This document shows positions 1 through 41,543 of a DNA stretch of 41,543 nt, in pieces. Within the stretch, counting starts at the first letter, position 1. Every line of letters starts with the position of its first letter. Source of the stretch: a virus (taxonomy: Duplodnaviria; Heunggongvirae; Uroviricota; Caudoviricetes); IMG/VR virus record IMGVR_UViG_2917413769_000002, positions 1-41,543 of that record; one strand, given 5' to 3'. The position numbers and the translations under genes are program-made. The notes under the pieces are model-generated. The model was not told the origin of the DNA and did not search any database. It saw nothing but the letters and a program-made list of their open reading frames with translations.

Positions 1-249
1 ATGATTATCGAAATCAGCATTGCCAAAGAGAAGATCGGCAAAATGCCGAAAGGCTCTACTGAAGCATTAAAACAGGAAATGATACGCCGTGTCAGCCAAC
101 GCTATGACGATGTAGAGGTCATTGTGAAGTCCGCCAGCAATGACGGTCTGTCGGTCCTCCGCGCACCTGATAAAGATGCAGCGAAGGCATTTGTGCAAGA
201 AACTTTGCAGGATGCGTGGGAGAACGCGGACGACTGGTTTGTTCAGTAA
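1..249 (+). CDS. dinI: DinI-family DNA-damage-inducible protein (prophage accessory gene)
   Basis: 82-aa ORF starting ATG at position 1; size and sequence pattern (acidic C-terminus ...[10 protein letters not shown]) match the small DinI family from memory; opposite strand to the phage late operon. Confidence 0.75.
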
Positions 250-360
250 CCACCGTGTAAACTCGCCGCCGGCTGGCAGCCATTCAATACTCGCACTATC
301 GAACGATCGCCAGCCAGCTGCAGCCCGTTCTTGCATACGACGTGGCTGCAGCACTCTCCT

Positions 361-783
361 TTAAGCAGGCTTTTCAGGCCAGTTAATATCCGGCGCAGTA
401 GACGTATCAACTGCTTCCAATGCATCCAGATAATCAAGCCTCGCGTTATACTGCGTCTTATCCGAATCGCTCAACCTTCCCATAGCCGCTTTGCCAGGCC
501 ACTGTTTGCTGTTCATGTAATCGTTGGCCTGATCTATGCGATTTTGCTTCTCTACATCAGCTGCTGAAATCAGATCTTCAGGTGGAATATCAACCCACGC
601 AGGAAGCCCATCCTTTCCCACTCCTAAAACCTTCCCTTCAGGCGGTGCGAAGTTATAGATATCACGCACGTCATCACCGACTTTTACAACGTCATCGGGG
701 AGCGTTCCTGCATCTATGTATGCCTGCTTATTACTTGCCGGGTAAAATGCCAGAGTTTTTCCACTAAATAAGTACATGCTCAT
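361..783 (-). CDS. tail fibre assembly protein (Tfa-like chaperone)
   Basis: 140-aa ORF immediately downstream of the tail-fibre gene with 4-nt overlap; conserved Tfa-like N-terminal region; ATG at 783. Confidence 0.75.
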   Translation of the reverse strand: MSMYLFSGKTLAFYPASNKQAYIDAGTLPDDVVKVGDDVRDIYNFAPPEGKVLGVGKDGLPAWVDIPPEDLISAADVEKQNRIDQANDYMNSKQWPGKAAMGRLSDSDKTQYNARLDYLDALEAVDTSTAPDINWPEKPA

Positions 784-1577
784 CTCCCAATCACTAAATA
801 GTTATAACGATAAGTAGTTCCTGTTCCTGCAGCTGAAACGTTCGCACCCCATGAGGTGAGGCTCATTGACGCAAAATTTACGCCGGTTGTTGAAGTGTTG
901 GTTGGTAACTGTACAGGGTCACTGATAACACCGAATGCTGCGTATACGGCCGACGTGAACGGGATCGGATAATTACCTGAATTCCCTGAAGTACCATTCC
1001 CTCCAAAATTACCCCACTGAATCATCAAACCGCCCGGAAGTTTCATGTAACCATTTGGTCCAATTGACGATGTGAAGCTGCTCATATCAGGGATCTGATT
1101 TGTGCCTGTTCCTACATCACGTTGCGCGGCGGTTTTTAGACCAAGGTAAGTAAGAACGCTGGGAATATCAGTCTTCCCAATGATATCCCGACCGACCTGA
1201 GTCAGGTCAGTTTGTGCAGCGGTATCAATACCGGTGAAATAAGGAAGCTTATTCGCTCCGGTCGCAAGGGCTGCAAGTGCCGTAAGTGTGGCATCCAGCG
1301 CCTGGAAATCCTTACCGAACGCGACGGTCATCTTGGTAATAAACCCGTTTAAGTCACCATCATCAAGCACATCTTGCCCACTTTTATTCGCGATATATTG
1401 CGCTAGAGAAGCTGCGATAAAACTTGCCTGCCGGATAGCTTTGTTCACCTGCGCACTGGATGCTTTGCCTGCCATGAACCCTGACAGTAAAGCCGGAAGC
1501 GCTTCCCACTCAGCCTGTGACATTACGTTTGCATTTGGATCAAGTGCAAATGCCTTAAAATCATTCTTGTTAGCCAT
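780..1577 (-). CDS. tail fibre protein
   Basis: C-terminal region contains the ...KLPYF...LTQVGRDI... block I recall as conserved in lambda Stf / Mu S-type fibres; last structural gene before Tfa; ATG at 1577 preferred over the TTG at 1595 in the ORF track. Confidence 0.7.
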   Translation of the reverse strand: MANKNDFKAFALDPNANVMSQAEWEALPALLSGFMAGKASSAQVNKAIRQASFIAASLAQYIANKSGQDVLDDGDLNGFITKMTVAFGKDFQALDATLTALAALATGANKLPYFTGIDTAAQTDLTQVGRDIIGKTDIPSVLTYLGLKTAAQRDVGTGTNQIPDMSSFTSSIGPNGYMKLPGGLMIQWGNFGGNGTSGNSGNYPIPFTSAVYAAFGVISDPVQLPTNTSTTGVNFASMSLTSWGANVSAAGTGTTYRYNYLVIGR

Positions 1578-1634
1578 CAGAGTAATACCCCCCAAGCGCC
1601 GGTATCGAAACCGCCGATATATTCGTTATCCATA

Positions 1635-2258
1635 TCAAACCCAAAAAAATTTCGTTCCTTCGGACGGTGTTTCTACCGAAGGTGTTTCAACGTCACCGGC
1701 CCATACGCCAGCTGCTTTAACGGTGAGATAGCCCTGTTTAATAGCGGCGATCAGTTCAAGAGACACATCTGAAATATCAGTCTCAGGGAATACCCAGACC
1801 GAAATCGTCATGTCCTGGTTATCGACGATTTGCATTTTCAGGCCAGAACCTGCTGTCGCAGCGTCAAGAATGGGTGGCAGCGAGTCGTTCCGCCCGTCCC
1901 AGTTGTTAATAGCGATTTTCGCTTTCAGAATGATGCGGTAGGTGTCATCGCTCAGCGACGTATAGCCCGAATCCGGGTCATATGGCCCTTGCCAGACACC
2001 TTGGTCATATCCCAGCCCATCGGTATCCCAGCTGAAATAAACTCCGGAAATAGGCTGGCTGACAATGCGGCTGCGCCCAATCCATAGCCCGAGCGTGTCG
2101 AGCTGCACACCGACAGCTGTATCGATATCGAAAGCAGAGACAAGGCCGCCCATGCTTTTGGAAATATCGATAAGCGGTCGGGTGCTCAGGTCAACGTGAT
2201 CGAAGAATTTGGGCTTGGTCGCGTGGTAATTGGTGATCCTGTCCGTATATTTGCTCAT
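1635..2258 (-). CDS. baseplate protein (P2 gpI / Mu gp48 position)
   Basis: 207-aa ORF directly downstream of the baseplate-J gene with coupled stop/start; synteny V-W-J-I-fibre-Tfa. Confidence 0.55.
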   Translation of the reverse strand: MSKYTDRITNYHATKPKFFDHVDLSTRPLIDISKSMGGLVSAFDIDTAVGVQLDTLGLWIGRSRIVSQPISGVYFSWDTDGLGYDQGVWQGPYDPDSGYTSLSDDTYRIILKAKIAINNWDGRNDSLPPILDAATAGSGLKMQIVDNQDMTISVWVFPETDISDVSLELIAAIKQGYLTVKAAGVWAGDVETPSVETPSEGTKFFWV

Positions 2259-39478: not shown

Positions 39479-39733
39479 TTATATACAATAGTTGACCCTG
39501 CCAATAGTTAACCCTGCAGCGTCATCTGTACAGCCAATTAGCGGCATTCCCGTGCCAAATTTACCGCCATTTATGACAATATGATTACCTGGGCCATGTA
39601 TGTAGAAGTTCCATGAATATGATTTCCCCCACGAAAGCATTGGATTATTAAAAGTTACGTAATTATTATCTTTAACAGAAACAATCTGATCCCCCCCATC
39701 TTTTGGTATGCATATATACCCAATAAACATCAA
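39479..39733 (-). CDS. hypothetical protein, possibly a gene remnant
   Basis: 84-aa ORF in AT-rich DNA between the acyltransferase gene and the IS630-family remnant. Confidence 0.25.
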   Translation of the reverse strand: MMFIGYICIPKDGGDQIVSVKDNNYVTFNNPMLSWGKSYSWNFYIHGPGNHIVINGGKFGTGMPLIGCTDDAAGLTIGRVNYCI

Positions 39734-39763
39734 GATGTGGGTGTGAACACCCGAAAGTGATCA

Positions 39764-40700
39764 TTAATTCTGGATGTCAGCCGCTATATCCGGCAGCGTC
39801 TGGTTAAAAAAGACAGATATTGCGTCCCTGAACACTCGCGTACTGCTGAAGTAGCGATTATTCCGCGCATGTTCGTTCATTAATTTCCACATTCTTTCTA
39901 TCGGATTCAGGTTTGGACTGTAAGGGGGAAGGTAATGCAGCCTGATATTTACCACTTCCGCCCAGTCTTTCACTAACTGTGAACGGTGATAACCTGCTCC
40001 ATCCAGAATAACGTGGATTTTCTGGTTATAATCAGGATAAACCTTTCGTATATCATTGAAAAAACGGTATACATTATATTCATTAATGGTTTTATATTCG
40101 CAGATTAGCGGTGACGTCAGTGCTTTCAGATTTAGCGCCCCATGATATTCAGGCGTGTGCGGCTGCCTGTTGTTTTTACTGCTTTTTTCTGGCCTTTGCG
40201 TATCCAGCCATAGCTGATTTTAGTGGCCTGAGTCGGATGGACTCCATCAATAAAAAGAATCGGTTCATCACCCACAGTTGTTTTCAGTTCCACATAATAT
40301 TCAATGAATTGCCTTTGTTTCTCTTCACAGAATTTATGGGGAACGCCTGACGGTTTTTGTAGGTGAAACCATTACAATGCAGCCACTTATTCATCCCCAG
40401 AATGCTGAAAATGATGTTCCATGTCCGGGTGACAAACGCAATAACATCGCGGGTACGGTGAAATAAATTATCGGATAACTGACTGATAAAAAGGGCCATT
40501 TGTTCAGCTCTGAGTTTGCGGCCTGAGCCGCCGTTTTCGGCCTTCAGTTTCCCTTTATTCAGGAATTCACTGATATGGTGATCAATCGTTGTCTAATGTA
40601 GGCGTAAAGCCTGAGCAATCATGGCAGAACTCCAGCCTTCGGAGGCCAGAAGAATAGCTTAAATACGAGCTCTGACTCGCCCGTCACGGCTGGAATCATG
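39764..40700 (-). mobile_element. IS630-family transposase gene, frameshifted
   Basis: C-terminal ORF has the DDE region ...HVILDGAGYH... and the family signature YLPPYSPNLNPIE; upstream parts in other frames (…YGWIRKG…NIMG / ALNL…); two frame breaks at short homopolymers (~40138-40141 and ~40354-40358); element ends not defined. Confidence 0.65.
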
Positions 40701-41054
40701 AAGGCGTTCAAGTTCAGCTTTTTGTTGCTCAGTGATGAATATTTTCATGTTGGACAGCATGATCTCCGATTGCTGAAAAATCAATCAGTTCCAATGATCA
40801 CGGGTATAAAATCGTTAATTGTATTATCGTTACCTGACTGCAAATGCATTCCTACCCCCATTCCAATATCAGTTGCAGATGGTAACTCATAGGCACAACT
40901 GGTCATGGTGAGGTCATTACAGTTATTGATATAGTAGGCCGTTCTGACAGTACCATCACTTGTACAACAAACCATGTTCGAATACTGACCGTTCTCTATC
41001 CGGAAAGCTCCTGGCAAGACTTAAGCATCGTTTACCCGTCCAGAGTTGAAGTGG

Positions 41055-41543
41055 TCAACAAAAACTGGCCACCGAGTTAGAGTTTTTCCAGTATCGATTT
41101 TCCGATTCGTTTGGGGGTAACCCACCGTTATATTCGTGCGGTCTTAGTGCGCTGTAATATCCAACGATATAGTCCGTTATGGCGTGAGCAGCCTCGCTGA
41201 AGCTTACGTAACCCACCACCGGTATCCACTCGTTCTTCAGACTCCTGAAGAAGCGTTCCATTGGGCTGTTATCCCAGCAGTTTCCGCGCCGGCTCATACT
41301 CTGCCTGAACTGGTATCGCCACAGTAACTGCCGAAACTGCCTGCTCGTATAATGACTGCCCTGGACGCTGTGGAAAATCACCCCGCCGGGCTTACCACGG
41401 GTTTCCCATGCCATTTCCAGCGCTTTCATGGTGAGCCTGCTGTCCGGCGAGAACGACATGGCCCAGCCCACTGGTTTTCTTGCGAACAGGCCTAGAACAA
41501 CGGCGAGGTACGCCCAGCGCTTACCCGTCCAGATATAGGTCAC
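41055..41543 (-). mobile_element. IS3-family (IS911-like) transposase orfB, C-terminal part; gene continues beyond window end
   Basis: 162-aa ORF with integrase-core motifs ...[12 protein letters not shown]...HS(V)QGSHYTS...; the position normally holding the second catalytic Asp reads Val (GTC). Confidence 0.7.

Follow-up and report, generated by a model that had tools for sequence, protein, structure and literature searches.

Homopolymer overcalls in an Ion Torrent draft very probably account for the frameshifted genes of an argW prophage in Escherichia cryptic clade II strain E1130

The stretch of DNA analysed here (hereafter the window) covers positions 1-41,543 of the IMG/VR virus record IMGVR_UViG_2917413769_000002, 41,543 nt in all, most of which is a prophage integrated at the tRNA gene argW. 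As given, the prophage genes for a probable small terminase (terS), the antiterminator Q, the repressor cI and a DUF2612 baseplate protein, together with an acyltransferase gene of the adjoining host island, are each frameshifted in a homopolymer. These five frameshifts are almost certainly consensus errors of the deposited assembly, the real runs on the coding strands being G4 (terS), A7 (Q), A4 (cI), G8 (acyltransferase) and T6 (DUF2612). On this reading, the real DNA encodes an intact prophage of ∼37 kb at argW and an intact acyltransferase.

An exact-protein look-up identified the contig PDIL01000012.1 (GCA_004745435.1; hereafter PDIL) as the source of the window, and the stretches fetched from it are 100% identical, with positions in that record equal to the window position plus 21272. 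PDIL00000000 is the assembly of Escherichia cryptic clade II strain E1130, which comes from sediment in Hong Kong. According to its announcement paper, the data were obtained on a flow-based platform, Ion Torrent, as single-end reads of 35-400 bp at 50x coverage, and were assembled with MIRA and SPAdes. Look-ups of the intact phage proteins then yielded a second public assembly, VATL01000008.1 (GCA_005781065.1; fetched as L008, L012 and L015; hereafter VATL), which carries the same prophage at the same integration site, as well as Logan assemblies of the read sets SRR6148301 (L009, L016) and SRR8835199 (L013). The comparison also included assemblies of three other clade II strains (L005-L007), ten related prophages (L018-L027), Enterobacter soli (L010) and the stretch of PDIL01000012.1 to the left of the window (L011).

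Over 39.9 kb (window positions 1596-41543), VATL shows no substitutions and seven one-base insertions or deletions (indels), all within homopolymers and always with the extra base on the window side. An independent assembly of the same clone thus differs from the window by single-base homopolymer length changes only:

1643: A7 in the window, A6 in VATL (plus strand); coding, DUF2612
21025: C5 in the window, C4 in VATL (plus strand); coding, terS
23430-23436: A7 in the window, A6 in VATL; intergenic
27519: T8 in the window, T7 in VATL (plus strand); coding, Q
30535-30541: A7 in the window, A6 in VATL; intergenic
31871: A5 in the window, A4 in VATL (plus strand); coding, cI
38248: C9 in the window, C8 in VATL (plus strand); coding, acyltransferase

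The original prediction had described terS (G5), Q (A8), cI (A5) and the acyltransferase (G9) as interrupted at homopolymers. This is exactly what is found, deletion of one base giving an uninterrupted open reading frame (ORF) in each case, but the DUF2612 frameshift and the two intergenic sites had been missed. When one base is removed at each of the five coding sites, the proteins of the window are identical to those of VATL, where terS, Q, cI and the acyltransferase are whole (200, 138, 225 and 341 amino acids (aa), respectively).

The Logan contigs of both read sets likewise show no substitutions against the window. The shorter run is seen in L016 (terS), L009 (Q and cI) and L013 (cI and 30535); the acyltransferase and DUF2612 sites lie outside these contigs, and are covered by VATL. 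At terS, Q and cI, the longer run is therefore not reproduced by another assembler or read set. The Logan assembly of SRR6148301 has unrelated one-base errors of its own, at 26207 and 17186. Since L009 shares the A7 of the window at 30535, I infer that strain E1130 is the source of the SRR6148301 reads, and that VATL derives from SRR8835199; this link is also supported by a fixed difference between SRX and SRR numbers, and among the runs of its accession block only SRR6148301 was found to carry the prophage. The two intergenic runs are less clear-cut. At 30535-30541, the window and Logan SRR6148301 have A7, while VATL and Logan SRR8835199 have A6. The run at 23430-23436, covered only by the window and VATL and by no third sequence, is probably an overcall of the same kind, without coding effect.

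The interruptions were checked by three-frame translation and by alignment to homologues. The four prophage genes concerned are listed below, with runs on the coding strand, coordinates on the plus strand of the window, and the run length favoured here in brackets:

1577-2258, minus strand: DUF2612 (Phage_Wedge1) baseplate gene; T7 at 1643-1649 (T6); 207 aa as given, 226 aa repaired
20777-21380, minus strand: terS, probable small terminase; G5 at 21025-21029 (G4); 124 aa as given, 200 aa repaired
27291-27708, minus strand: Q antiterminator; A8 at 27519-27526 (A7); 106 aa as given, 138 aa repaired
31347-32025, plus strand: cI, LexA-like repressor (HTH_3 and Peptidase_S24); A5 at 31871-31875 (A4); 190 aa as given, 225 aa repaired

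For terS, the G4 run is found in nine sequences, namely VATL (L008, L015), Logan SRR6148301 (L016), the Enterobacter soli prophage (L010, at 97% identity) and five further related prophages, and a 200-aa gene stands at this position in all ten related prophages fetched. The terS assignment itself is tentative; it is suggested by PHROG terS matches of 1e-6 to 3e-4, a sub-threshold Sf6_terminase match, and the location of the gene directly upstream of the adjoining terL. The repaired Q protein matches PF06530 over positions 1-118 of 118 (E = 2.6e-49), and its A7 run is present in VATL (L008, L012) and Logan SRR6148301 (L009); a search of complete E. coli genomes for Q relatives gave two partial matches only, neither reaching the A-run. 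In cI, whose two domains are backed by both Pfam and PHROG matches, the extra A falls within the YVKRLQ motif, and A4 is present in VATL (L008, L012), Logan SRR6148301 (L009) and Logan SRR8835199 (L013); no close DNA relatives were found in complete E. coli genomes. The DUF2612 gene (PF11041, E = 2.8e-45) has A6 on the plus strand in VATL (L015), and T6 at the same place in Yersinia phage YP3. Complete E. coli genomes could not settle the run lengths of Q, cI and the acyltransferase. Judged on these alignments, the shorter length is the correct one at the five coding sites, since it restores full-length proteins and since relatives carry the short runs (G4 in terS, T6 in DUF2612, C8 in the acyltransferase).

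These single ORFs bear on the idea that programmed ribosomal frameshifting takes place at the interruptions, with the genes expressed as given. Runs such as A8 and G9 can be slippery, and some insertion sequence (IS) families use programmed frameshifting. However, the clone itself and every relative have these genes as single uninterrupted ORFs, and the shifts needed fit no conserved two-ORF arrangement: terS is a single 200-aa ORF in 10 of 10 relatives, and Q, cI and the acyltransferase are also single ORFs. The interrupted IS copy of the window, described below, has nonsense codons as well. The probability of programmed frameshifting is accordingly negligible.

A more serious alternative is that the insertions are real mutations of E1130, which would have lost its repressor, antiterminator and packaging functions and would carry a locked-in cryptic prophage, with VATL representing a sister isolate in which the phage is intact. 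The frameshifts are indeed present in the deposited sequence, homopolymers are favoured by slipped-strand mutation too, and no strain name was found for VATL. Nonetheless, this would require seven insertions and not a single substitution in 40 kb, at a rate that scales with run length in the manner of flow-chemistry error. The Logan assembly of SRR6148301, probably made from E1130's own reads given the PDIL-specific A7 at 30535, has intact terS, Q and cI. Overcalls also recur elsewhere in the sequencing project (C9 in the acyltransferase, A9 in the host gene yfdC), and a clonal assembly of another project strain, E3356, has C8. VATL has none of the five lesions, the Logan assemblies lack three of them, and other signs of decay (nonsense mutations, deletions, IS insertions, module loss) were not found in the prophage. 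I consider real mutation very improbable. The fallback reading of the original prediction, a coherently crippled, locked-in prophage, is refuted, as the lesions are absent from VATL and the prophage genes are intact there, while its preferred explanation, systematic homopolymer indel error that leads to wrongly called pseudogenes, is borne out for terS, Q, cI and the acyltransferase by the Ion Torrent origin of the draft, the intact genes of VATL, and the intact terS, Q and cI of the Logan contigs.

Consensus error is also what the distribution of the differences points to. On the Ion Torrent platform, a homopolymer is read as one flow signal, and the number of bases is taken from its amplitude, which is poorly resolved in long runs (PMC12046094). 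Accuracy falls with run length, producing frameshifts in assemblies and inflated pseudogene counts, and in a comparison with Illumina, indels were concentrated in homopolymers, with a mean length of 5.5, a maximum of 9, and adenine most affected (PMC12046094). In the window, the error probability likewise rises with run length: counted by the favoured length, two of 377 runs of four are miscalled, none of 130 runs of five, three of 39 runs of six, one of nine runs of seven, and the single run of eight. All seven differences lie in runs of length at least 4, which make up 6.2% of bases (P about 3e-9), and five of the seven in runs of at least 6, which make up 0.76% (P about 5e-10). Natural divergence looks different, since strains of different lineages (L005 and L007) differ over 12.5 kb by 74 substitutions and no indels.

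The same class of error appears to extend beyond the window. To its left (around 19400-20850 of L011), the host gene yfdC, which encodes 310 aa in other strains, has A9 in PDIL and A8 in three strains, and is not called in PDIL because of the longer run. PDIJ (strain E2562) has the same A9. In the Logan assembly of SRR6148328, from the same accession block, fadJ and fadI are broken up by three one-base deletions that a near-identical contig does not have. All seven differences are overcalls, and identical sites are miscalled in several of the project's assemblies, which suggests a bias tied to the site or the pipeline, rather than purely random error. The proposed course would be that the 50x single-end MIRA/SPAdes consensus kept a one-base overcall at a few runs, where a systematic bias would not be averaged out by such coverage and the wrong length would stay.

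Several points weigh against this conclusion. All seven differences are insertions (sign test, p = 0.016), a bias not classically described for the platform, although the assembly pipeline may be its source. Neither a platform nor a strain name for VATL came out of literature searches for VATL00000000, GCA_005781065, SRR6148301 and neighbouring prefixes, and VATL may therefore be no more accurate than the draft. The link between SRR6148301 and E1130 is one of accession arithmetic, together with the status of this run as the sole prophage carrier found in its block. The analysis is of assembled sequences. Finally, at the two intergenic sites either length may be the true one, and at 30535 the read sets disagree.

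The longest of the runs lies outside the prophage:

37823-38849, minus strand: Acyl_transf_3 gene of the host island, ∼35% G+C; G9 at 38248-38256 (G8 favoured here); 206 aa as given, 341 aa repaired

The repaired protein matches PF01757 end to end, and the G8 tract sits at codon 204 of the 341, where a one-base change switches the frame. Such a tract could in principle be truly hypervariable, as might the other longest runs, with mixtures of G8 and G9 cells leading assemblies to report different lengths; I give this very little credence as an explanation of the frameshifts. In its more specific form, the G8 tract beside argW would be a slipped-strand phase-variation switch, turning a surface-polysaccharide acyltransferase on and off in Escherichia clade II, and the disagreement between G8 and G9 would reflect mixed populations and not only Ion Torrent error; this, too, is highly unlikely. 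A G8 tract is unusual in the middle of an ORF of ∼35% G+C, and both lengths are reported among clade II assemblies. Yet the C9 is found only in Ion Torrent project data: PDIL, PDIE, PDIJ and a Logan contig of SRR6148323, a run that by its accession block appears to belong to that project. C8 and the 341-aa protein are present in VATL (L008, L012) and in the three other clade II strains (L005-L007), and alternative assemblies of two clones give G8 where the project has G9 (VATL against PDIL for E1130, L005/L006 against PDIE for E3356). PDIE and its clonal Logan contig L005 differ over 6.6 kb by a single base, that of the acyltransferase C9. Moreover, the lengths seen are 8 or 9 only, and the same assemblies overcall A-runs with no plausible switching role. 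A search of complete E. coli genomes gave no homologue of the acyltransferase with which tract lengths might be compared. The gene thus has a long homopolymer within its ORF at which a one-base change shifts the frame, but variation in tract length among accurate independent sequences of close relatives was not found.

Genuine decay is seen next to these sites, in an IS630-family element that the original prediction had grouped with the assembly errors. The element and its lesions, relative to the whole 341-aa ISEc40 transposase of E. coli EC13, are as follows:

39733-40748, minus strand: ISEc40-like IS630-family transposase pseudogene, ∼95% DNA identity to annotated ISEc40 copies in E. coli genomes
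40659-40661: nonsense codon TAA at Lys30
40593-40595: nonsense codon TAG at Gln52
40354-40358: one-base deletion in an A6 run (A5 here)
40138-40141: one-base deletion in a G5 run (G4 here)
near 39781: 5-bp deletion

Besides these lesions, the copy differs from the ISEc40 of E. coli EC13 by 58 substitutions. Across the element, VATL is identical to the window, and L005 and L006 differ from it by one substitution and no indels. With its close ISEc40 identity, and because its disabling lesions are common to these independent assemblies, the transposase gene is a real, old and decayed pseudogene, and the ISEc40 copy is an internal contrast to the artefacts. The two frameshifts that had been reported for it do lie at short runs, which are A5 and G4, but single-base changes do not restore the protein, given the two stops and the 5-bp deletion. 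The transposase of a related locus (L024) was rejected as lesion reference, being too distant (∼25% identity), and ISEc40 was used instead.

The prophage lies on the minus strand, spans ∼37 kb, and has Yersinia phage YP3 as the closest phage record. It encodes tail, baseplate, head, portal, TerL, lysis, Q, primase, helicase, cro/cI, early and integrase genes. In VATL, the integrase, repressor, replication, Q, lysis, packaging, head and tail genes are all called intact, and the structural genes are full length relative to YP3. For its attachment site, the junctions were compared with prophage-free strains:

37015-37040, plus strand: right 26-bp attachment core, in the 5' part of argW
37016-37090, plus strand: tRNA-Arg(CCU) gene argW, at the right end of the prophage

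The left copy of the core lies ∼160 bp before the window start (around 19520 of L011), so the prophage measures ∼37.2 kb and fills nearly all of window positions 1-37014. Integration took place in the 5' part of argW, not at the usual 3' end, with duplication of the 26-bp core, and the functional argW copy takes its 5' arm from the phage, in which T at 37020 is replaced by C. In the acceptor stem as I read it, the replacement would turn the U5-G68 wobble pair into C5-G68.

Other features of the prophage were noted in passing. A second tyrosine recombinase (334 aa; 21627-22631, minus strand) lies between the lysis genes and terS; it is distinct from the argW integrase (35651-36820), and the exact protein occurs in 239 blocks of the public collection, in many related enterobacterial prophages. 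An accessory cluster (24863-26920, minus strand) between Q and the lysis genes encodes a 183-aa protein with a faint MptE-like match, a 312-aa protein and a class I SAM methyltransferase, and a Band_7 (SPFH) lipoprotein gene (32775-33602, plus strand) is located in the early-left region.

Beyond argW, the host island is of low G+C content, and carries a truncated intS, the Acyl_transf_3 gene, the IS630-family element and an IS3-family fragment. At 41368, within this fragment, other clade II strains have an insertion of an IS110-family transposase of ∼1.36 kb (14118-15480 of L005) that is absent from the window. Two further run-length differences from other strains, at 37228 (T3 against T4) and 39690 (C7 against C8), were first taken as PDIL-specific errors, and were set aside because VATL shares both; being common to PDIL and VATL, those at 37228 and 39691-39697 are either real differences of the clone or errors in both data sets.

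Irregularities were also observed in two related records. In the related prophage of E. coli DX6 (NZ_CP126345.1, labelled "complete"), RefSeq lists five "frameshifted" pseudogenes (head morphogenesis, portal, lysozyme, helix-turn-helix (HTH) regulator and hypothetical), possibly homopolymer artefacts of this kind produced by another platform. The YP3 record (PV092592.1) contains baseplate and structural genes twice (for example at 634-2436 and 30868-32589, and at 6049-6351 and 32974-33276), and Baseplate_J and DUF2612 are joined in one of the copies as a 600-aa "tail fiber", so that the record may contain a mis-assembly or an indel.

The value of these observations is practical rather than biological. 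Annotation of the GenBank record as given would call a functional-looking temperate phage defective, and would wrongly label the repressor, Q, terS, the baseplate gene, the host acyltransferase and yfdC as pseudogenes. A large part of the public data for this lineage comes from the 16 clade II genomes of the project, which if used unpolished would inflate pseudogene counts and pan-genome sizes, and distort calls of prophage intactness. The signature of the artefact, seen against a clonal assembly, is the absence of substitutions together with one-base homopolymer differences that become commoner in longer runs. The ISEc40 copy shows the pattern of real decay, in which nonsense codons and deletions of several bases are common across strains.

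Comparison with known systems is in line with this distinction. Like the decayed Escherichia prophages DLP12, Rac and CPS-53/KpLE1, the prophage of the window occupies a tRNA-gene site (argW), and it adjoins a real KpLE1-like remnant (truncated intS, dead IS, IS fragments). Unlike them, it has no reproducible inactivating lesion, and every gene called is intact in VATL. The acyltransferase resembles phase-variable poly-G contingency loci in having a G8 tract within an AT-rich Acyl_transf_3 gene, where a one-base length difference turns the ORF off; it differs from them in that the length tracks the sequencing project and pipeline, not the strain, and in that no independent accurate data show variation. 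The IS630-family element shares with ISEc40 ∼95% DNA identity and the same 341-aa DDE transposase frame, but the copy in the window is dead, its two nonsense codons, two one-base deletions and 5-bp deletion being common across strains. In contrast to known Ion Torrent homopolymer miscalls, all seven differences here are overcalls, and the overcalls C8 to C9 in the acyltransferase and A8 to A9 in yfdC recur across assemblies of the project. In all other respects the agreement with such miscalls is close: the platform is documented, the changes are single-base indels confined to homopolymers and commoner with run length, a second data set and a second assembler do not reproduce them, and they break ORFs that are whole in relatives. 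The frameshifts of this prophage and its neighbour are thus a known kind of artefact, without biological novelty.

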